A stretch of DNA of 64,000 bases, taken from positions 37,380 to 101,379 of the forward strand of contig CAZKUW010000002.1 of the NCBI GenBank assembly GCA_964556125.1, read 5' to 3'. Below, piece by piece: positions 9,737 through 64,000 of this stretch. The notes below the pieces were generated by a model, which made no database searches, was not told the DNA's origin, and saw nothing but the letters and a program-made list of their open reading frames with translations. The first letter of the stretch is position 1, and each line of letters begins with the position of its first letter. This stretch comes from an uncultured Candidatus Saccharibacteria bacterium (GTDB lineage Bacteria; Patescibacteriota; Saccharimonadia; Saccharimonadales; Saccharimonadaceae). A program made the position numbers and the translations under genes.

Positions 9737-9796
9737 ATCAGGTAGTTATTATACCATTCTAGAGACATTCTGTCTAACTATTTACAGAGGTGAAAC

Positions 9797-9875
9797 GAGC
9801 CCCGGCGTATGCCTGGGGCTCTATAGTGTGAGGGAGTTCCGGCGAGCGGAGCCGTCGTCATTGACGGCTCCGCTC
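9797..9875 (-). terminator. two GC-rich hairpins downstream of GC-islet gene B
   Basis: GAGCCCC..GGGGCTC (9797-9821) and a perfect 13-bp stem GAGCGGAGCCGTC-gtcatt-GACGGCTCCGCTC (9844-9875). T-runs are weak. Confidence 0.5.
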
Positions 9876-9909
9876 GGGCTCAGGGATGGGCTCGCACGAG
9901 ATGGGTGAG

Positions 9910-10176
9910 CTAGCTCACCAGCGCCAACTCTCGAATCGGCTCTTCAGCCATTTCGACAGCGACATCCGTCTCGAGTGCGACCCACAGTAGACCGCTGATG
10001 AACTGACGACGTCCGGCCACGAGTTCGCGGACGGACATCTTCAGAAGCAGCTTCGAGATCCCGTTGGCGGTGATGGCGTACTGAACCGCCACCGCCGCAT
10101 CCTGGAGGTTGTTGAAGGTTTCGCTCTCAAGAAGCAAGGTATCAACAACCTTAACGATCGGTTCCTGTGTGCTCAT
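9910..10176 (-). CDS. GC-rich islet B: hypothetical protein (88 aa)
   Basis: ATG 10176 is preceded by AGGGAG. GC-rich third codon positions in this frame. MSTQEPIVKVVDTLLLESETF.... The track ORF is extended to 10221. Confidence 0.6.
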   Translation of the reverse strand: MSTQEPIVKVVDTLLLESETFNNLQDAAVAVQYAITANGISKLLLKMSVRELVAGRRQFISGLLWVALETDVAVEMAEEPIRELALVS

Positions 10177-10223
10177 GTATCTCCCTCGTTGTGTGAATGC
10201 GGTAGTGCAGACGACAATCACTG

Positions 10224-10317: not shown

Positions 10318-10346
10318 TTGACATATTTACTATAGTTTTATATACT
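10318..10346 (+). promoter_or_regulatory. rplJ-rplL promoter (TTGACA-17 bp-TATACT)
   Basis: Consensus -35 TTGACA at 10318-10323, a 17-nt spacer, and TATACT at 10341-10346. This gives a leader of about 180 nt. Confidence 0.65.
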
Positions 10347-10359
10347 CCCTAGTAGACAT

Positions 10360-10464
10360 CCCAAAGACAGTAGCTGTGGCAACACTTAATTCGCTACCGA
10401 GGTAAATGTAAAACATACATTTTTTCAGTCTTTGGCAGTGCGAGAACCAAAGACTTTTTGTTTT
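10360..10464 (+). promoter_or_regulatory. rplJ leader with terminator/antiterminator alternative pairing (L10-leader-like attenuator)
   Basis: AGTCTTTGG (10427-35) pairs with CCAAAGACT (10447-55), followed by TTTTGTTTT. An upstream CCAAAGAC (10361-68) can pair with the same 5' arm. Confidence 0.55.
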
Positions 10465-10535
10465 CTCTGGGAAAAGCTGCCTGTCTAGCATGACTTAACA
10501 ATTTGGCCGAATGAATAATAACCAAGGAGATTTTT

Positions 10536-13091: not shown

Positions 13092-13171
13092 CAACCTCAG
13101 CTTTTTGCGTTTCATCGCGATTGGCTTGTCCTGTGAGTTCGCTCACGCCGAAAAGTAGGAAAGCTGGGGAA

Positions 13172-13798
13172 ATGAATAGCTTGCTGTACCCGCCTCTCAT
13201 CGAGGTGGTCTCCCGCGATCGTGCCGCGATGTCGGCCCTTCGTAGCGCCCGCATCTTCCACACCGTTGGACTGACTCTCTGGAGTCGAGAGGAGCTGGTC
13301 GCCGACACAGGCGTCACGCTCACTCAGGTCCGACACATGGAGGTGGCCCTCAAGGAGGCTGGACTCGCACTGCGTCCGTACTCCTACAAGAAGGTGGACA
13401 TGGTCATTGACCAGCTGCCCGTGAACGAGACCTCGTCTGCGGAGCTGCTCCACCTGTGGTTCACCCAGAGGGAAGCGGATCTCAAGAGGAAAGATAGCGT
13501 CAGGTACTATCCCTGCGCCGTCGTCACCCTCCTGACCGCGAACCTCGGCTGCAAGACGGTCGGCGATGTCCTGGAGATCAACACCGGAGAAATTCGCCGG
13601 CTACTCCGATCGCTCACCGAAGGTCAGTGGCAGTTCTACGCGGGTCACAATCCGCGTGTACGGCGCGATGCCAGTCGAGAAGTCATCATCCCCAAGATGG
13701 TGACGAACTACTTCGACCGACTCGGCCGCTGGGGTCTCACCGAGAAGGTGAAAGTGCTGACGCACGCTTCACCGACGCCTACAAGATCGGCTCGCTGA
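13172..13798 (+). CDS. GC-rich islet C: protein with two RpoA alpha-CTD-like helix-hairpin-helix repeats
   Basis: ATG 13172 follows GGGGAA. IFHTVGLTLWSREELVADTGVTLTQVRHMEVALKEAGLAL aligns by eye with RpoA CTD [40 protein letters not shown]. A second, weaker copy is LTANLGCKTVGDVLEINTGEIRRLL. Confidence 0.6.
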   Translation: MNSLLYPPLIEVVSRDRAAMSALRSARIFHTVGLTLWSREELVADTGVTLTQVRHMEVALKEAGLALRPYSYKKVDMVIDQLPVNETSSAELLHLWFTQREADLKRKDSVRYYPCAVVTLLTANLGCKTVGDVLEINTGEIRRLLRSLTEGQWQFYAGHNPRVRRDASREVIIPKMVTNYFDRLGRWGLTEKVKVLTHASPTPTRSAR

Positions 13799-13817
13799 GC
13801 TCACCGGACATGCTGAT

Positions 13818-19939: not shown

Positions 19940-20599
19940 GTGTTCCGTACCATCTTTGGCAAGCGCTGGCTGCAGACTCATATCTACATGACCCGCATGT
20001 TGGATAACGCCATCGAGCACCGCTACGAGAAGCACAGCGTCCTCATCGGAACGCTGCTCCTCGTCGCCGCTCTCAGTGTCGTGCCGCTCTCCGTCTACGG
20101 ACTTCAGTCCGGCAGCTTCGGGCCCGACCTGGCGTTTCTGCTGGCAGTCATCGGCCTGTTCTGCGTCTACATCGGCGTGCACAATCTTCGGATTCGCCGT
20201 GTCCACGAGATCCTGATCAAGAACTCCACGAGTGAGTGGCGCTACCGCTACCTCTTCAGTGAAGACGACTTGATCTACCAGTCGATCATGTTCCCGTCCT
20301 ACGTCGAGTACCTGGACGGACGAGATCGCGAGAGCATCAACATGGAGGCTTGGTGTATCCTCCAGGACTACGCGCGTTCGGCGCTCGACCACTGGGAGAT
20401 CATCAACATCGAGATGGCGCACCCCGATTGCAGTGACTCCGAGAGAATACAACTCGAGGAAGAGCAACAGGAGTACATCCATTCGATCGCCCATGCGGCT
20501 GGAATCCGCATCGCCGCACTGCTGGGACTCGATCCGGGCTCGTTCTTCAGAGACCGTGCTCGGATGATCGTCAAGAGCCGGCGACCCAACAACAAGTAG
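19940..20599 (+). CDS. GC-rich islet D: two-TM membrane protein (219 aa)
   Basis: GGAGGA RBS followed by GTG 19940. GC3-rich in this frame. TM helices VLIGTLLLVAALSVVPLSVYGL and LAFLLAVIGLFCVYIGV are followed by a soluble C-terminal domain. Confidence 0.6.
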   Translation: MFRTIFGKRWLQTHIYMTRMLDNAIEHRYEKHSVLIGTLLLVAALSVVPLSVYGLQSGSFGPDLAFLLAVIGLFCVYIGVHNLRIRRVHEILIKNSTSEWRYRYLFSEDDLIYQSIMFPSYVEYLDGRDRESINMEAWCILQDYARSALDHWEIINIEMAHPDCSDSERIQLEEEQQEYIHSIAHAAGIRIAALLGLDPGSFFRDRARMIVKSRRPNNK

Positions 20600-20614
20600 A
20601 CCACGGAGACGGCT

Positions 20615-39314: not shown

Positions 39315-39411
39315 ATTTATATATTATACCATTTTTTCAACATAAGGAAAACACCCCGCCAGCTACGACGAGGTGCTCCCGGTCGGAGTGGCGAGGTGTG
39401 AGCTCGCTGTT

Positions 39412-40020
39412 CTATCCGCGCAACAGCCAGGCAAGGAGGCGACGAGGTCGCTGCTCCTGCTTAGGCGTGTAGTGCGTGTCGACACGCCGACCTGCCTTGA
39501 TGGTCTGGCCGCCGGCCAGCTTGACGTGAGCATCGATCGTCACGTTCTGGGCCACGACGATGTCGTTTCCCATAGTGACGAAGTTGCCGATGCGGCTGTT
39601 CTTGCCGAGCGTGACGTTGCCGCCAGCCTGGAAGTTCTTGCCGATCACGACACCATCCTCGATGGTGGAGTTGGGACCGATGTCGCAGGACCAGCCGATC
39701 ACGACGTTGTTGCCGACCGTGATGTTGGTGTCCATGCAGACACTGCCCTCGAACTCCGTGTGATGACCGATCTTCACCCAGGCAAGCTGGGTGTCGAAAC
39801 CGATCTTGGAGAAATCGCCGATGACGATCTCCATGAACTCGCAACCGTTCCCGATCACGACGTTGTTGCCGATGTGCACGTCATCCTTGAACCAGACGTT
39901 GTGCCCGATGGTGACGTGGTCACCGACGGTGAAGCTCCCCCCGACCTTCACCTCAACGACAGAGCCGTCAGGGTTTGTGTGCGAGTAGGTAGTTAGTGTA
40001 TCCAAGATGGATGCCCCCAA
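39412..40020 (-). CDS. GC-rich islet E: left-handed beta-helix (hexapeptide-repeat) protein
   Basis: Tandem [LIV]-G-x4 repeats (VTIGHNVWF.DDVHIGNNVVIGNGCEF...VGNNVVIGWSCDIGPNSTIEDGVVIGKN). GC3-rich. The start is uncertain: TTG at 40020 or a downstream TTG. Confidence 0.65.
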   Translation of the reverse strand: MGASILDTLTTYSHTNPDGSVVEVKVGGSFTVGDHVTIGHNVWFKDDVHIGNNVVIGNGCEFMEIVIGDFSKIGFDTQLAWVKIGHHTEFEGSVCMDTNITVGNNVVIGWSCDIGPNSTIEDGVVIGKNFQAGGNVTLGKNSRIGNFVTMGNDIVVAQNVTIDAHVKLAGGQTIKAGRRVDTHYTPKQEQRPRRLLAWLLRG

Positions 40021-41391: not shown

Positions 41392-41410
41392 ACTTAAGTG
41401 ATTATACCTT

Positions 41411-41454
41411 AAAAATGAAGCGCCGGCCTCCCTCGAACATAAGGGGGGCCGGCG
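41411..41454 (-). terminator. intrinsic terminator of islet F
   Basis: Read on the minus strand: CGCCGGCC(CCCC..GGGA)GGCCGGCG followed by CTTCATTTTT. Confidence 0.7.
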
Positions 41455-41469
41455 ACTTCGGACATGAGC

Positions 41470-41943
41470 CTAGCGGCTCACGAGTCCCTCGAGGGTCTTG
41501 ACGAAGCCCTCGGGGCCGGAGAACAACGCGTCCTGGTCATCCTGCTCGTAGCCGTTGTCGGGCAGGATCAGGGTGGCGAAGCGGATCGACCGCATCATCA
41601 CACAGACCGGGCCGGTCTTCTTCGGGTCGATGTAGCGCAGGTTGTAGAACCCGAACGCGACCTCGTGACTCGTCGAGAGGCGGTAGAGGATCAGGTCGGC
41701 CGGACCGATCGCCTCCGTGTCGAGCTCCTCCTGGAAGATGAGGAACTCGAACTGCGCGGCGGGGTGCGGCTTGATCTGGAAGTCCTCGGGGTGAGGGAAG
41801 ATCGTTGCCATTCCCTCGACGGCGCCGACGAGTCCGTGCTCCTTGATCAGGGGCAGGACGGCGTCGAGCGAGTCGATCAGAGCCTGCTTGCGCGCGTTGA
41901 AGACGCGCACGCGGGGGTCGGTGAACAACATCGTGTCAGTCAT
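41470..41943 (-). CDS. GC-rich islet F: hypothetical protein (157 aa)
   Basis: GC3-rich frame. MTDTMLFTDPRVRVFNARKQALIDSLD.... No family recognised. Confidence 0.6.
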   Translation of the reverse strand: MTDTMLFTDPRVRVFNARKQALIDSLDAVLPLIKEHGLVGAVEGMATIFPHPEDFQIKPHPAAQFEFLIFQEELDTEAIGPADLILYRLSTSHEVAFGFYNLRYIDPKKTGPVCVMMRSIRFATLILPDNGYEQDDQDALFSGPEGFVKTLEGLVSR

Positions 41944-42023
41944 GCGTTATCTCTTCTCAGTAATGTCCAAAGTCCTTGCGGAGCTTGGACTATCGGGTAG
42001 TGCCTAAGCTCTCGCTTAATATT

Positions 42024-42079: not shown

Positions 42080-42117
42080 GAAGTGGAGCCCGCGCCCGAA
42101 GGAGCGGACTCCACTTC
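42080..42117 (-). terminator. GC-rich hairpin terminating islet G
   Basis: GAAGTGGAG(C)CCGC...GCGG(A)CTCCACTTC, a stem of about 14 bp lying 14 nt after the stop codon. Confidence 0.6.
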
Positions 42118-42130
42118 GGACACGGGCGTG

Positions 42131-42760
42131 TCAGATGAACGAACGAGGGTAGGTCGTGTCAGAGACCACCTCGTACGTGGCGTAGGTCTCTTCCGAGTCA
42201 TCCTGTTCATGAACGGTGATGCGCAGCACACGTACGCGCTGGAGGAAGGCCGCTCCGGGGTAGTCGGTCGCTTCGAAAACGAGCGACTTTTCTTCTCCAT
42301 CCCGAGAACCATGGATCACCTTGATGTGATACAGGTTGAGGTCCTCAGTGATCGCCTGCAGGTGGACGAAGAAGTTGTGCTCGGCGATCCCCGACATGTT
42401 CGAGCTGATCGGCGCATGTGATCGAACGAACGAACCACCTGCGAGCGACAGCGTCGCGACCTGAACTCTGAGTGGCTCTCCCAGCGTTGACCCGCCGTGA
42501 TGCGGGCCAGCGTGGTTGAGGTCAGAGAGTCGGAACAGCTCGAACTTGTCAGGAACGTCCCAGACCAGATCGAAGCCGTGAAGGGCACTAGCGACGATCT
42601 CGTCGTCAGGCGGATAGCCCGCATCGATCCAGTCTGCGAGCTGCTCCTCGGTCGGTACGTGGATGCGACGCATCCACGAGGGGACCGGTGCGGTTCCAGG
42701 CTGCACCTTCCGAGGGTGCCGGCGGACAGGCGTTTTCTTTTTTTCGTTTCCCTGATTCAT
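42131..42760 (-). CDS. GC-rich islet G: hypothetical protein (209 aa, basic N-terminus)
   Basis: ATG 42760 is preceded by GAAAGAGAG. MNQGNEKKKTPVRRHPRKV.... GC3-rich. The track ORF is extended to a GTG at 42814. Confidence 0.6.
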   Translation of the reverse strand: MNQGNEKKKTPVRRHPRKVQPGTAPVPSWMRRIHVPTEEQLADWIDAGYPPDDEIVASALHGFDLVWDVPDKFELFRLSDLNHAGPHHGGSTLGEPLRVQVATLSLAGGSFVRSHAPISSNMSGIAEHNFFVHLQAITEDLNLYHIKVIHGSRDGEEKSLVFEATDYPGAAFLQRVRVLRITVHEQDDSEETYATYEVVSDTTYPRSFI

Positions 42761-42840
42761 CTGCTCTCTTTCTAGGTGGGTGGATGTGCTGCCATGATCG
42801 AATCTTGGAAGCACGACACCAGCCCAGAAAGAGTACTATA

Positions 42841-49175: not shown

Positions 49176-49191
49176 TGGCTGGGGATGAGGG
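49176..49191. repeat. att-like repeat, proximal copy (tRNA-Gln 3' end)
   Basis: TGGCTGGGGATGAGGG. See 46670-46685. Confidence 0.6.
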
Positions 49192-49249
49192 ATTCGAACC
49201 CCCGATATCGGGACCAGAACCCGGTGCCTTACCACTTGGCCAATCCCCA
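49176..49249 (-). tRNA. tRNA-Gln (anticodon CUG), CCA encoded
   Basis: TGGGGATTGGCCAAGTGGTAAGGCACCGGGTTCTGGTCCCGATATCGGGGGTTCGAATCCCTCATCCCCAGCCA. The 7-bp acceptor stem, the GGTTCGAATCC T-arm and the anticodon loop TTCTGGT fold by hand, and the sequence is close to E. coli tRNA-Gln. Confidence 0.9.
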
Positions 49250-54490: not shown

Positions 54491-54519
54491 ACCCACCAAT
54501 CGGTGAGTGTTGTGACGAG

Positions 54520-54560
54520 GCGCGCAGCCTGAGCGGGCCCGAAGGCCCACCCAGACGCGC
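54520..54560 (-). terminator. GC-rich nested hairpin after islet H
   Basis: GCGCG...GGGCC-cgaa-GGCCC...CGCGC. A T-run occurs only further downstream (54481-54491 on the minus strand). Confidence 0.4.
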
Positions 54561-54564
54561 ACCT

Positions 54565-54927
54565 CTAGAGGGGGTGAGACTGCTTCTCATGCTCGATCTT
54601 GTGCTGGATCAGTCCCTTGATGATGTCCACGAACGCGAACAGCACCATGGCCCAGACCACGAACACGAGGACAGCCTCGATGAACGTGAGCCAGATGACA
54701 GCGTCGTTGACGTCGTCGCGACGGATGAAGTTGGCGAACGCGACGTACACGTCGAGATCCTTCATCTGCGCTCCGAGCCAGACAGCGCCGAGCATGGCGA
54801 TCCATCCGAAGATGGGGATGACGAGATGCAACGAGTGCGTCATGCGTCCCCAGATCGTCAGGCCGATCAGCAGGAAGCCAGCGAACAGCGCCAGCTTCGT
54901 TGCCCCTACAATCCACGCCGGGTCCAT
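54565..54927 (-). CDS. GC-rich islet H: small three-TM membrane protein (120 aa)
   Basis: AGGAGG RBS 4 nt before the ATG. GC3-rich codons. TM helices ATKLALFAGFLLIGLTIW, LVIPIFGWIAMLGAVWLGA and VIWLTFIEAVLVFVVWAMVLFAFV. Confidence 0.7.
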   Translation of the reverse strand: MDPAWIVGATKLALFAGFLLIGLTIWGRMTHSLHLVIPIFGWIAMLGAVWLGAQMKDLDVYVAFANFIRRDDVNDAVIWLTFIEAVLVFVVWAMVLFAFVDIIKGLIQHKIEHEKQSHPL

Positions 54928-54964
54928 AGCTCCTCCTTAGGGGTAGTGGTGGTCGTGTAAATAT

Positions 54965-59361: not shown

Positions 59362-62300
59362 ATGAGGGTAATGAATTTTTCGGAGAGGTATAAGCAGCTC
59401 AATACTGCTCAAAAAGAGGCAGTCGATCACATCGATGGACCAGTGATGGTTATTGCCGGACCTGGTACCGGAAAGACTGAGCTACTTAGTGTTCGAACGG
59501 CAAATATACTCGCGAAGACAGATACCTTACCTAGTAGTATCCTCTGTTTGACGTTTACTGAAAGTGGCGCAGCGGCGATGCGACAGCGTCTCGTCGGCAT
59601 TATCGGTAAGGATGCCTACAAGGTCGCTATCCACACATTTCACAGTTTCGGTACAGAAGTAATCAATCAAAACCGTGAATATTTTTATCACGGCGCCTTA
59701 TTTGAGCCAGCGGATGACCTGAGTCGATATGAAATTCTTCGTGGCATTTTCGATGAACTCGACTATAAGAATCCTCTCGCCAGCACTATGAATGGCGAAT
59801 ATACGCACCAACCCGATGCTACAAAAGTTATTTCTGAATTGAAACGGAGTGGCTTAACAAGTGATGAACTGCTCGCAGTGTTAGATGCAAGCGAATCTGC
59901 GCTCGATACGGCCGAGGCCTTAATCGCCCCTATACTTAGCGGAACAGTTAGCGTCAAAGTCCGAGATGCCCTCCAAGCCGCTCTCCCGGAACTTCTTGTT
60001 GCTGCAGAGAGAAGCGAAACACTATTTGAGATACCGCCACTCGCAAGAGTTATTTACGATGGACTGGTTAGCGCGATTGAGTTGTCTCAAGTCGATCACC
60101 CGACAAAACCGATCACTGCCTGGAAAAAGAAATGGCTCGTTAAAAATGAAAAAGGTGAGTTCATCTTTAAATCTCGTAATTATCTTGCAAAGCTCCGCTC
60201 ACTCACGTTTGTCTACTATGAATACCTCAGTCGTATGGAACAAGCAGGACTCTATGACTACGACGACATGATCCTTCAAGTGGTTCATGCCATGGAAGTT
60301 CATGATGAGCTCCGTTTTAATCTTCAAGAAAAGTATCTTTACATTATGGTTGATGAGTTCCAGGATACGAACTTAGCTCAGATGCGTATCCTTCATAACC
60401 TGACTGACAACCCGGCAAACGAAGGTGCCCCAAATGTGCTTGTCGTCGGTGACGATGACCAAGCCATCTATAGTTTCCAAGGCGCTGATATCAGTAACAT
60501 TCTTCGTTTTAAAGAAATTTACCCGAGCGCATCTCTTGTTACTCTAAAAGATAACTACCGTTCAGGCGAAGCTATCATCTCGGAATCTCGTGAAGTGATT
60601 GTTCAGGGTGAAGACCGTCTTGAAAACAAAGTTGTCGATCTTAACAAGGAATTAACACCACAGCAATCAATCAATGCACAGGTCGAGCTCATGCATGCTC
60701 CGACCATTGAAAGTGAGCGACACTGGCTCGTCAGCTCCATTTCAAAAGCAATCCAAAACGGTACAAAACCTGCCGATATCGCCGTTTTGACACGCCGTCA
60801 CTTTGAAATCCAAGGTTTACTACCATATTTTCAAGATGCAGGTATAGCCATTAGTTATGATCGTCAAGAAAATGTACTGGAACAACCGCCGATTGTCGCA
60901 CTCGAATTGCTCGCAACCGTTGTGGTCTCATTGAGCAATGGTGAGCACGATGTCGCGAACAGTTTACTACCCCGACTCCTCGCACATCCAGCATGGGGCA
61001 TCACTCCAAAGGAGTTGTGGGAGCTCAGCACCACAGCGTATCAAAGTCGTGAGCGCTGGCTCGATGTTATGGCGACGACACCTCGATTTCTTGATATTCA
61101 CAGCTGGTTAATCGAGCTAGCGGCATTGTCACAACAACTCGCACTGGAGCCAATGATTGATCGTCTCATTGGCCGTAGCGAAGAGGCGACCTATCCGAGT
61201 CCTTTCTTTGAATATTTCTTCGCAAAAGAAAAACTCCTTGAAACACCAAGTGCCTACCTTGATTGTCTTGCGGCTCTGAGAACTATTCGCTCACATCTTC
61301 GCGAATACCGTCCGAAAGACCAACCGACATTGTCATCCTTTATTGAATTTATCGTTCTTCACCGTCGTCTTGGGAGCAATCTCATGGTGGCACATGCTCG
61401 TCTCGAAGGCGATGACAATGCCGTAAATCTAATGACCGCCCATCGCTCGAAAGGACTTGAGTTTGATACAGTCTATATCTTCAATAGTGTGGACAACGTC
61501 TGGGGTGAAAAAGCCCTATCACGGAGCCGATCAATTAACTATCCTGAGAACCTCACTCTCGCTGATGCTGGTGGCTCTGCCGATGAGCGACTGCGTTTGT
61601 TTTACGTTGCGATGACACGAGCGAAAAAGCGTCTCGTCATGAGCTATAGCGACAGTAACGATACCGGTAAATCGACACTTATCGCAAGCTTCCTGTCTGA
61701 AAAAGCAGGTGAGGCAAAAGATATTCTAGATCATAGTGAAAGAGATTCAGTAAAAGCTGCTGAGCTCGCTTGGTATGCGCCGCTAGTCGAACCATCTGTC
61801 GATTTGAAGAAAATTCTTGCACCAACCTTACAAAATTATAAACTCAGTGTCACTCACCTCAATGCTTTTATCGATATCTCTCGCGGTGGTCCACAACATT
61901 TCTTGTTAGATCATTTGCTTCATTTCCCGAGCGCTAAATCTGCATCAGCCTCATATGGTTCAGCTATACACGCCACCTTACAACAAGCACATGTTCATCT
62001 CGCGGCAACAGGAGAGCAGAAGCCTCTTGAGGATATCTTGCGTGATTTCGAAGTCAACCTTAGTAATCAGCGACTCAGTCCACTTGACTACAGCACCTAT
62101 CACCAAAAGGGAAGTGAACAACTCCAAGCATTTCTTGCGGTTAAGTACGATGAGTTCAAACGAACCGAGAAATCTGAGCTCAACTTCTCAGGCCAAGAAG
62201 CGATGCTTGGTGAGGCTCACCTAACCGGTATGATCGATGTCGTCGATATTGACGAAAAGAGAAAATCAATGATCGTCACAGATTATAAAACCGGAAAGCC

Positions 62301-62640
62301 TGCCCTGAGTTGGAAGGGAAGTGATGATAATGAGAAAATTAAACTTCACAAATACCGCCAACAACTGATGTTCTACCATCTAATGATCAAGTCATCTCGT
62401 GATTATAGTAACTACACCGCCGAAATTGGCAAACTCGCATTTATCGAGCCGACAAAGTCAGGCGAAATCTCAACGCTTGAAATGTCTTTTGAAAAAGAAG
62501 AACTCGATCGATTTGAACGCTTGATCGGGAAGATCTGGGAACGAATCATCAATCTTGATCTGCCTGATGTTTCAGGATTTGATACATCATATAAGGGCGT
62601 CTTAGCGTTCGAAGAAGCACTCCTTGATGGTAGCGCTTAA
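59362..62640 (+). CDS. UvrD/PcrA-type helicase fused to a C-terminal PD-(D/E)xK nuclease (AddA/RecB-like)
   Basis: AGPGTGKTE (Walker A), VDEFQDTN, VGDDDQAIYSFQGA and TAHRSKGLEF. The C-terminal GMIDVVDID...IVTDYKTGKP...YRQQLMFYHLM is a RecB-type nuclease motif. Confidence 0.85.
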   Translation: MRVMNFSERYKQLNTAQKEAVDHIDGPVMVIAGPGTGKTELLSVRTANILAKTDTLPSSILCLTFTESGAAAMRQRLVGIIGKDAYKVAIHTFHSFGTEVINQNREYFYHGALFEPADDLSRYEILRGIFDELDYKNPLASTMNGEYTHQPDATKVISELKRSGLTSDELLAVLDASESALDTAEALIAPILSGTVSVKVRDALQAALPELLVAAERSETLFEIPPLARVIYDGLVSAIELSQVDHPTKPITAWKKKWLVKNEKGEFIFKSRNYLAKLRSLTFVYYEYLSRMEQAGLYDYDDMILQVVHAMEVHDELRFNLQEKYLYIMVDEFQDTNLAQMRILHNLTDNPANEGAPNVLVVGDDDQAIYSFQGADISNILRFKEIYPSASLVTLKDNYRSGEAIISESREVIVQGEDRLENKVVDLNKELTPQQSINAQVELMHAPTIESERHWLVSSISKAIQNGTKPADIAVLTRRHFEIQGLLPYFQDAGIAISYDRQENVLEQPPIVALELLATVVVSLSNGEHDVANSLLPRLLAHPAWGITPKELWELSTTAYQSRERWLDVMATTPRFLDIHSWLIELAALSQQLALEPMIDRLIGRSEEATYPSPFFEYFFAKEKLLETPSAYLDCLAALRTIRSHLREYRPKDQPTLSSFIEFIVLHRRLGSNLMVAHARLEGDDNAVNLMTAHRSKGLEFDTVYIFNSVDNVWGEKALSRSRSINYPENLTLADAGGSADERLRLFYVAMTRAKKRLVMSYSDSNDTGKSTLIASFLSEKAGEAKDILDHSERDSVKAAELAWYAPLVEPSVDLKKILAPTLQNYKLSVTHLNAFIDISRGGPQHFLLDHLLHFPSAKSASASYGSAIHATLQQAHVHLAATGEQKPLEDILRDFEVNLSNQRLSPLDYSTYHQKGSEQLQAFLAVKYDEFKRTEKSELNFSGQEAMLGEAHLTGMIDVVDIDEKRKSMIVTDYKTGKPALSWKGSDDNEKIKLHKYRQQLMFYHLMIKSSRDYSNYTAEIGKLAFIEPTKSGEISTLEMSFEKEELDRFERLIGKIWERIINLDLPDVSGFDTSYKGVLAFEEALLDGSA

Positions 62641-62643
62641 CTA

Positions 62644-62672
62644 TTGACGTAACACCTTAAAAATGCTATATT
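62644..62672 (+). promoter_or_regulatory. promoter of islet I (TTGACG-17 bp-TGcTATATT)
   Basis: TTGACG at 62644-49, a 17-nt spacer ending in TGC, and TATATT at 62667-72, immediately after the helicase stop. Confidence 0.55.
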
Positions 62673-62849
62673 AGTAGACGCATTGATCGAGGACGTGAGA
62701 CGTGGATGAAAATCTATTTGTATCTATATCCCACGTCCTCTCAAGCACCTGAACAGAGATGGAAATGGTATCTTTCGCCCCATGACGATAGGTAGGTTGC
62801 TTACGAGTGACCATTGAGACTTCGGTCTCGAATTCACCGAACGAAAGGT

Positions 62850-62993
62850 ATGGCCATGGCCACAACCTGCAACGGCTGTTGCGAGCGCTGCAGCGGTAGC
62901 TCGCAGCGTTCCCACGGTGGTACCGGCACCTGCAACGGTAGCTGCCGGGGATCCGGGCACACTCCCTACTGCACGGCGACCCACAAGACGTAG
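62850..62993 (+). CDS. GC-rich islet I: 45-47 aa Cys/His-rich peptide (not in the ORF track)
   Basis: Hand translation gives M-A-MATTCNGCCERCSGSSQRSHGGTGTCNGSCRGSGHTPYCTATHKT*. Seven Cys, three His, and TCNG(C/S)C occurs twice. 38 of 47 codons end in G or C, against about half in the competing 86-aa antisense ORF. AAAGG lies 7 nt before the second ATG (62856). Confidence 0.5.
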   Translation: MAMATTCNGCCERCSGSSQRSHGGTGTCNGSCRGSGHTPYCTATHKT

Positions 62994-63082
62994 ACTTTAC
63001 GTCGCGTCGCTAAGAGCACGAGGAGAAGACGGACAGGACGGTCGCAAGACCCCCTGTAAAAACAGTAGCTCCATCTCTGTTC

Positions 63083-63124
63083 CGTCTCCCATTCATCATA
63101 AAAAATTATGATCAGCGGGAGACG
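63083..63124 (+). terminator. long imperfect hairpin after islet I
   Basis: CGTCTCCC...ATCATAA-aaaa-TTATGAT...GGGAGACG followed by TTTGG. Terminator function is uncertain. Confidence 0.35.
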
Positions 63125-63154
63125 TTTGGAAACCTAACATGAGACAATAGAATA

Positions 63155-64000
63155 ATGAAAAATTTTTGGCAGGACCTTCCAAAACCTTTCTTCATCCTTG
63201 CTCCAATGGAAGCCGTGACGGATGTTGTTTTTCGTCATGTCATTGATACTGCCGGTGCACCTGATGTTTACTTTACAGAATTTACCAACGCCGCCAGCTA
63301 CTTTAGCGAAAAAGGTCGAGATAGTACAAAAGGTCGCCTTGCATTTACGGATGATGAACAGCCGATCGTAGCGCAAATCTGGGGAACCAAGCCGGAGCAC
63401 TTCGGCTTTATGGCAAAGGGCATGAAAGAACTCGGTTTTGCTGGTGTTGATATCAATATGGGCTGTCCCGCTAAAGACGTCGTTAAGACTGGTGGCGGAA
63501 GTGGCATGATTCGTGATCCAGAGCGCGCTGCTGCGGTCATTGCGGCTGCAAAGGAATCTGGTTTGCCGGTGAGCGTTAAGACGCGTCTAGGGGATGTGAA
63601 GACCGAGGAGTTTACCGAATGGCTCACTCATATTCTTAAACAAGACATCGTCAACCTCACGATTCATCTCCGTACTCGAAAAGAAATGAGTAAAGTTCCT
63701 GCGCACTACGAATTAATTTCTGATATTAAAAAACTTCGTGATGAAATCGCTCCTCAAACTCTCCTAAGTATTAATGGAGATATCCGTGACCGTGCCCATG
63801 GTCTCGAACTTGTTGAAAAATATGGCGTTGATGGTGTCATGATTGGCCGAGGAGTCTTTACAAACCCTTATGCCTTCTCGAAGGACATTCGCACACGAAG
63901 CCGCGAAGAATTACTTGGATTACTGGAGCAACAATTAGATCTATTCGATAAATACTCAAAAGAACTCGAGCCACGAAAGTTCGATCCTCTGAAACGATTC
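63155..64000 (+). CDS. dus: tRNA-dihydrouridine synthase, 3' end outside the window
   Basis: Hand translation gives [29 protein letters not shown]...IVAQIWG...[26 protein letters not shown], the Dus family motifs. Absent from the track because there is no stop codon in the window. Confidence 0.85.

Follow-up and report, generated by a model that had tools for sequence, protein, structure and literature searches.

What can a bacterial clade with genomes of about 1 Mb or less be keeping in a "non-coding" spacer of 0.4-1.2 kb at one fixed place? The question is raised by a GC-rich segment in a 64,000-nt stretch of DNA from an uncultured Candidatus Saccharibacteria bacterium (the window, here always the whole stretch), lying between a UvrD-type helicase gene and a dihydrouridine synthase (Dus) gene. 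The helicase gene (59362-62640, plus strand) encodes 1092 residues with a C-terminal PD-(D/E)XK nuclease domain and borders the spacer upstream, the Dus gene begins at 63155, and the 514 nt between them are filled by the element described here. The helicase-dus region is best read as an independent transcription unit with one gene, predicted to yield an mRNA of about 450 nt from a near-consensus promoter. The unit probably encodes a zinc mini-protein on an mRNA held in a conserved RNA frame. The promoter, the stem, the hairpins, the open reading frame (ORF) and the third-position bias of the original prediction, made from the letters of the window, are all present; a 13-bp closing helix, a conserved putative terminator and the fit of the ribosome-binding sequence to the second ATG are additions of the present analysis. 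Literature searches yielded nothing on the helicase-dus spacer locus.

Evidence for a small-protein gene

The ORF carries G or C at the third position in 38 of its 47 codons, corresponding to a third-position GC content (GC3) of 0.81 against 0.40-0.42 in the flanking genes. The other two frames, a minus-strand one of 86 aa and a plus-strand one of 64 aa, have GC3 values of 0.48 and 0.42, in agreement with the earlier statement that they lack third-position bias. The spacing of the Shine-Dalgarno (SD) sequence suits the second ATG (62856), so the product more likely has 45 residues. Relatives carry a strong SD in the corresponding place, consisting of AGGAGGTGA or 6-8 nt of it and separated from the start by 3-6 nt. 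The predicted peptide contains seven Cys and three His in 47 residues, with a Cys content of 15% and with CC and CxxC motifs. One CxxCxGx motif (CERCSGS) and one CxxxCxGxG motif (CNGSCRGSGH) can be read from it, and the duplicated TCNG(C/S)C motif noticed previously matches two conserved Cys clusters.

HMMER search against 1.84 billion representative proteins identified the homologues P0001, P0003 and P0004 (E 6e-7 to 2e-5), and a profile search added P0005 and P0006 (E 1e-15 and 8e-15), giving five homologues in total. Word-indexed protein searches that used either the window peptide or an initial alignment of Cys-rich neighbours returned no match, a null that reflects a sensitivity limit because full HMMER found the homologues. 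Where the contig is long enough, the homologue loci lie 3' of the same UvrD/PDDEXK helicase, and in L220-L225 they lie 5' of Dus; the contig of locus L217 is too short for readable flanking genes. The homologues share a gapless 35-residue core, CxGCCx[RK]C[HS]GxSx[RK]xxGGTGTC[NY]G[GS]CxG[ST]GHxxxC, with an amino acid identity of 60-74% and a nucleotide identity of 61-66%. Within this core, nonsynonymous differences (pN 0.22-0.33) remain below synonymous differences (pS 0.58-0.83), and by this measure the core of the window ORF is under purifying selection. The earlier claim of an unannotated small Cys/His-rich gene is upheld by these homologues and by their substitution pattern, and the GC-rich stretch is very likely a real, previously unannotated gene for a Cys-rich protein of 45-47 residues. 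The family recurs at the helicase-dus site in at least six lineages. The expected conservation of the ORF in homologous segments therefore holds for these lineages, whereas most syntenic segments contain a different ORF.

Eight residues are invariant in the four aligned sequences (C7, C10, C11, C14, C28, C32, H37 and C41), and seven of these eight candidate ligands are also common to a more distant sequence set. The invariance of the eight Cys/His residues makes a metal-binding role plausible, and their number would fit two tetrahedral zinc sites. The peptide probably binds zinc, and we infer that one or two Zn(II) ions would organise its fold into a mini-domain of the knuckle type, akin in style to the CxxCxGxG fingers. 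Judged from its sequence, it belongs to a new family of Cys-rich mini-proteins that has relatives in neither Pfam nor the PDB. The window peptide and representatives of the other protein families found at this site gave nothing significant against Pfam, PHROGs, NCBIfam and PADLOC, and a PDB sequence search with the window peptide gave one chance match only. GajB matches of the helicase reflect only its generic UvrD fold.

At locus L217 (309-533), the homologue of the window peptide carries a hydrophobic N-terminal extension (MLRLIGMLALVSAL...) behind its own SD, which may be a signal or anchor sequence, and a second small-ORF unit stands in tandem on the same contig. The gene calls of P0001 and P0005 carry spurious N-terminal extensions; some gene callers miss or wrongly extend such small-protein genes.

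The RNA frame around the gene

By its helicase sequence, the source of the window is related to Ca. Microsaccharimonas (Saccharibacteria). The gene order, in which a long spacer separates the helicase from Dus, is retained in 11 GTDB genomes and in about 40 of 80 metagenome contigs recovered with Dus, with spacers ranging from 409 to 1224 nt, and about 50 related genomes in all retain the spacer. More distant Dus homologues have other neighbours and ordinary SD leaders, with no comparable element.

A promoter with 10-11 of 12 consensus matches, usually with an extended -10 TG, is located at the 5' end of 30 of the 47 distinct syntenic spacers. Three further spacers have their only such match elsewhere in the spacer, and a -10 box is present in most of the remainder; the missing -35 boxes probably fall within the end of the helicase gene. 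In the window, transcription is predicted to start near 62678. The putative transcript (62670-63135) folds at -189.5 kcal/mol (z = -7.9), with none of 100 shuffles folding as well. Its minimum-free-energy (MFE) fold includes hairpin 1, a closing helix and a terminator hairpin, and also contains the hairpins that had been proposed after the stop codon. Table 1 lists the coordinates of these features.

Table 1. Features of the helicase-dus element, in window coordinates.
Feature	Position	Strand	Description and basis
Sigma-70-type promoter, TTGACG-17-TGcTATATT	62644-62672	+	10/12 matches plus extended -10 TG
Hairpin 1, long irregular rod in the 5' leader	62673-62750	+	MFE fold and covariation; core stem 62689-62740
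Closing helix, 5' arm, GAACAGAGAUGGA	62751-62763	+	perfect 13-nt reverse complement of 63070-63082; paired in MFE fold
Leader inside the cargo	62764-62842	+	lineage-specific hairpins, including GAGAC-UUCG-GUCUC (62816-62829); MFE fold
SD sequence, GAAAGG	62843-62848	+	7 nt before ATG 62856, 1 nt before ATG 62850; read from sequence
Small protein gene	62850-62993	+	47 aa, MAMATTCNGCCERCSGSSQRSHGGTGTCNGSCRGSGHTPYCTATHKT, or 45 aa from ATG 62856; putative two-zinc mini-protein
3' untranslated region inside the cargo	62994-63069	+	two hairpins, about 62988-63004 and about 63033-63057; MFE fold
Closing helix, 3' arm, UCCAUCUCUGUUC	63070-63082	+	inverted-repeat search, MFE fold and relatives
Putative terminator hairpin, GUCUCCC...GGGAGAC, then GUUUGG	63084-63129 (hairpin 63084-63123)	+	MFE fold and covariation

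Hairpin 1 is built on a 9-bp stem that pairs GAGGACGTG (62689-62697) with CACGTCCTC (62732-62740) and is extended by UUGA (62684-62687) with UCAA (62742-62745) across a UC bulge. In a 30-locus alignment, compensatory changes occur at 17 of its 18 predicted pairs. Paired cells amount to 93.7%, compared with 33-49% when the partners are slid, and the covariation score was reached by none of 500 shuffles. About 39 cells hold G-U pairs, equivalent to A-C mismatches on the opposite strand. Covariance model R1 locates a single copy in the 64 kb, at 62673-62751, with a score of 60.6 bits for the plus strand and 24 bits for the minus strand. It also picks up a single copy in each locus, among them loci outside its training alignment. 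The 5' region also contains the conserved unpaired nucleotides GAUYGA and UGCACAUU. In many relatives the 5' arm of the closing helix could instead pair with the 3' flank of hairpin 1 (UCUCUGU/ACAGAGA). The window has lost this option, and there the 3' flank covaries with the 5' flank of the hairpin. At locus L005 (9330-9365), hairpin 1 is almost entirely deleted between two GAGACATTGAC repeats, with the closing helix, ORF and terminator kept.

The closing helix joins the 5' and 3' untranslated regions around the entire GC-rich content between its arms, here termed the cargo. It was judged by direct inverted-repeat search against shuffles, because a MAFFT alignment of the concatenated frame misregistered the 3' arm. 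Nearly every locus contains a perfect inverted repeat of 12-16 bp around 250-630 nt. The median arm length is 13 bp, with at least 12 bp in 37 of 47 spacers, compared with a mean of 8.2 and a maximum of 13 in 940 block shuffles. At least 18 arm variants occur, and both arms always change jointly; examples are GACAGAGATAGTGA, GACAGAGAGAATGAGA, AACGACAGCAAA and GGCAAGGATACTG, alongside GAACAGAGATGGA in the window, GACAGGAAATAGTGC in L218 and GACAGGAAGAGTGTT in L220. Searched against viral contigs, a 14-mer from the arm gave single chance matches only, and both arms were found on no contig.

The terminator hairpin begins 1-3 nt past the 3' arm and is kept in 24 loci, with compensatory changes at 9 of 14 pairs and U-G as the commonest pair at three positions. 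The G-U and U-G pairs, together with the much higher covariance score on the plus strand, assign the structure to plus-strand RNA, and with high confidence the RNA frame is real and lies on that strand. Rfam 15 searched over the whole window returned only an L10 leader and a tRNA, both away from the element. In the region 62500-63300 at E <= 10, only chance miRNA-type matches outside the element were obtained, and nine homologous spacers scanned at gathering thresholds gave nothing but an aberrant tRNA-like element in L010. ARAGORN reported no tmRNA. The Rfam scan suggested in the original prediction gave no known family for the region, a well-supported RNA structure without an Rfam entry.

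Exchange of the enclosed ORF

The frame has a GC content of 0.39, compared with 0.58 for the cargo (range 0.52-0.63), and the GC3 of cargo ORFs ranges from 0.56 to 0.81 with a mean of 0.65. The GC richness of the cargo, common also to the other GC-rich islets of the window, could stem from foreign origin or from selection for RNA stability, both being possible. Nearly every cargo holds one plus-strand ORF of 43-81 codons, usually behind a very strong SD. About ten recurrent, mutually unrelated small-protein families occupy this position, including CxxCxGxG zinc-finger peptides (MFKSEDEKRQ...), several hydrophilic Ala/Lys/Gln-rich families, zinc-ribbon peptides and a family of the form CxGCCP...CSxC...H...C. 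All-against-all clustering of open frames joined separate families by way of non-coding stretches and was excluded from the counts. The cargo leader of the window could be aligned neither to its closest relative, L009, nor to L218, which carries a homologous peptide.

Pairwise comparison of closely related loci locates the exchange. In L138 and L162, the flanks and the whole 5' leader are 98% identical, and unrelated ORFs occupy the stretch between a point just past the SD and the 3' arm. L171/L183 and L173/L174 are two further pairs in which flanks of 82-92% identity surround a non-aligning stretch. These three comparisons characterize the ORF as an exchangeable module in a constant RNA frame. 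Across the Saccharibacteria clade, the comparisons show a conserved frame and an enclosed ORF that, as read from the sequences, is one of about ten alternatives exchanged between strains. Such sharp ORF replacement in a nearly unchanged frame offers a clean natural example of modular small-protein gene exchange and hints that, in this epibiotic lineage that is hard to culture, the function evolves fast. For work on small proteins and on mRNA stability in the candidate phyla radiation, the locus is also a concrete target.

Several further observations were made on the cargo. Non-AUG starts (ATC, ACG and TTG) occur 4-6 nt behind a perfect AGGAGGTGA in L011 (spacer position 319), L008 (323), L220 (about 4067), L171, L174, L183 and L155. 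A canonical tRNA lies within the closing helix in L225 (about 2380-2460). The tRNA-like elements at L002 (7330-7490) and L003 (9400-9560) retain intact acceptor, D and T arms but have a GAAA tetraloop where the anticodon loop would be and a variable region enlarged by an insertion of about 70 nt. Another, at L010 (9588-9666), has an oversized anticodon loop. A tRNA or tRNA-like element is also located inside or just past the cargo at L216 (3200-3225) and L217 (about 610-640). Additional small-ORF units, a second or a third, each under a promoter of its own, stand between the first unit and Dus in L220 (4370-4552), L010 (9930-10120), L172 and L178.

Dus itself is apparently translated leaderless or nearly so, in the window (63140-63157) and at the same position in L001-L011 and L137-L183. 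A conserved extended -10-like sequence, TGAGAYAAT, is located 6-10 nt ahead of the Dus ATG, with no SD there.

Proposed role of the frame

The predicted 5' end of the transcript is at most about 10 nt from the start of hairpin 1, and the closing helix and terminator stand 1-3 nt apart, so that the three helices meet at one junction in the predicted structure. Both RNA ends would be tucked into this compact three-helix junction, which could protect the transcript from end-dependent nucleases; alternatively, the frame could provide a double-stranded processing site of the RNase III kind. In such an arrangement, the frame would shield whichever ORF it carries from the surroundings. Structural masking of the ribosome-binding site (RBS) or SD is not supported, as its accessibility in local folds matches that of ordinary genes (0.40 unpaired, compared with 0.43 for 30 ordinary window genes; p = 0.32). 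The frame more likely affects mRNA stability or processing than senses a ligand or masks the RBS, and a definite role as stabiliser or processing element is proposed tentatively.

A number of observations weigh against the combined reading of a zinc mini-protein on a frame-stabilised or frame-processed mRNA. The accessibility result gives no support to the version of it in which translation would be masked. No Pfam or NCBIfam model matched the window peptide and its five homologues, leaving no zinc-finger family at a useful threshold, and AlphaFold2 on a four-sequence alignment reached a predicted local distance difference test score (pLDDT) of 45.6, with no fold assignable. The closing helix has no G-U pairs of its own, and its RNA-level role consequently rests on its placement in a transcript whose other helices are RNA-level; with 12-16 bp, it also falls below the classical RNase III substrate length. 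Most relatives have a full U-tract (UUUUU) after the terminator hairpin, and that of the window is weak (GUUUGG) and uncalled by a simple terminator scan. Finally, the cargo of L006 and L004 apparently lacks an ORF, and the frame may accordingly have a function of its own.

A wider proposal, speculative and rather doubtful at this stage, describes the spacer as an "expression socket", an RNA scaffold with promoter and SD that would take alternative, compositionally foreign small ORFs, and occasionally tRNAs, exchanged under diversifying or frequency-dependent selection. If true, an RNA frame and not a recombinase would define this cassette system, which could serve interactions with the actinobacterial host or with phages.

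Alternative explanations

The inverted repeats might act on DNA, as recombination sites of an inverton or an integron-like cassette, and in this way account for the cargo variation. The arms are indeed perfect Watson-Crick repeats free of G-U pairs, identical within a genome and different between genomes, and they enclose variable small ORFs, compositionally unlike the frame, at a fixed chromosomal site, as integron cassettes and invertons do. Such DNA-level action is nevertheless unlikely, as no inverted cargo is evident in the 47 distinct spacers, every strong-SD ORF lies on the plus strand, and loci without a strong-SD ORF have no convincing SD-ORF on the minus strand. The exchange boundaries lie off the repeats, the L138/L162 swap beginning just past the SD rather than at the 5' arm and the unaligned stretch of L171/L183 apparently spanning SD to stop codon. 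Each locus has the arms only once, with no further copy in the 64-kb window or the 15-kb loci. They belong to a transcribed RNA structure whose neighbouring hairpins (hairpin 1 and the terminator) are RNA-level, with G-U pairs, and no recombinase, integrase or invertase gene adjoins the unit. At the RNA level, a fold-back mRNA of the type I toxin-antitoxin kind would employ the 5'-3' helix to silence a toxic ORF until processing. The systems hok/sok and aapA1/IsoA1 resemble the present unit in placing a small ORF on a compact, structured mRNA whose 5' region pairs with the 3' end, and the cargo ORFs are variable and fast-evolving. This explanation is very unlikely given cargo peptides that are hydrophilic or Cys/Gly-rich and not hydrophobic membrane peptides, an RBS not specially masked, and the lack of any PADLOC match. 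No conserved minus-strand promoter was found among the 47 spacers either, three of them having a weak site at differing positions. A leader acting as a cis-regulatory sensor, proposed originally as a metal or redox riboswitch or a leader-peptide attenuator, would agree with a 5' region that is structured, conserved and equipped with conserved unpaired nucleotides. The same hairpin and helix, however, precede about ten unrelated ORF families, so that no common ligand logic is apparent, and the conserved 5' element is a single rod hairpin with no multi-helix pocket. The leader between the 5' arm and the SD is unconserved even among loci with homologous peptides, and Rfam gives no match to the element at E <= 10. 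The 29-codon mini-ORF (62706-62795) invoked for attenuation sits in the covarying hairpin 1 and has no counterpart in relatives, many of which have no ATG in that segment. Both versions of the sensor therefore fail to find support, and such a function is very improbable.

Two alternatives concern the ORF and its product. The unit could be primarily a structured non-coding RNA, with the ORF as a by-product of GC richness. In GC-rich sequence, several reading frames stay open over long distances, the z-score of the fold is strong, the cargo of L006 and L004 is seemingly without an ORF, and some relatives carry tRNA or tRNA-like elements in the cargo. Against this stand substitutions that follow codons, Cys/His ligands that are invariant across six lineages, and an SD and start codon at an equivalent position in nearly all loci; in family A, the differences between L002 and L008, read directly, are mostly synonymous. 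A by-product ORF is accordingly highly improbable. For the peptide, a metallothionein-like metal buffer or the precursor of a ribosomally synthesised and post-translationally modified peptide (RiPP), here Cys-crosslinked, had been suggested on account of the composition; the seven Cys and three His among the 47 residues, together with the CC and CxxC motifs, are in its favour. The part of this suggestion that stands is metal binding, plausible from the invariant Cys/His residues. The metallothionein-like part is not borne out: the window peptide has no Pfam match at E <= 1, hence none to a metallothionein family, its five homologues have none of relevance, and a Cys content of 15% with conserved Gly/Thr spacers suggests a fixed fold. 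The RiPP part is disfavoured by the mere 4-8 residues that precede the conserved core, which leave no leader peptide, and by the readable neighbours, always helicase and Dus, with no maturase or transporter gene adjoining any locus where they can be read. Either role for the peptide is improbable.

Comparison with known systems

Among known proteins, the closest in style are the CxxCxGxG zinc-finger mini-proteins (DnaJ central domain, PF00684; anti-TRAP/RtpA), which are likewise small and Gly/Cys-rich and have paired Cys motifs, which in these proteins chelate Zn. Cargo ORFs at sister loci L002, L143 and L010 give weak, sub-threshold matches to PF00684, Anti-TRAP and RtpA (E 0.002-0.02). The window family differs in matching no profile, in the CxxxC spacing of its second motif, and in an extra invariant CxGCC cluster and a His...C pair. 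The conserved Gly/Thr scaffold of the family resembles a CxxCxGxG-type structural zinc knuckle more than a metallothionein.

For the RNA frame, the RNase III processing stems that flank rRNA and tRNA in rRNA operons offer a partial analogy, in which a long-range perfect helix brackets structured GC-rich cargo. The canonical tRNA in the cargo of L225 and the tRNA-like remnants in L002, L003 and L010 also recall these stems. In contrast to rRNA operons, the helix here has only 12-16 bp and the cargo is an mRNA. The large RNAs ROOL, GOLLD, OLE and raiA are similar as GC-rich, structured intergenic islands of 300-600 nt, sometimes with embedded tRNAs. The present element is unlike them in having no Rfam match (window at E <= 10, nine relatives at gathering thresholds) and in a variable core that encodes protein.

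Other features of the window

Seven more GC-rich islets (60-68% GC, compared with 46.5% for the window) are located at 9780-10220, 13120-13800, 19940-20600, 39340-40020, 41400-41950, 42080-42815 and 54500-54930. They are mostly without a Pfam match, with one hexapeptide-repeat protein and one weak MscL-like match, and may have been acquired horizontally. Several of them, when read through, consist of a gene with an AT-rich promoter of native type and a GC-rich hairpin terminator. The two Rfam matches of the window are an L10_leader (62 bits, 10343-10469) upstream of rplJ/rplL and a tRNA-Gln(CTG) at 49176-49249 on the minus strand.

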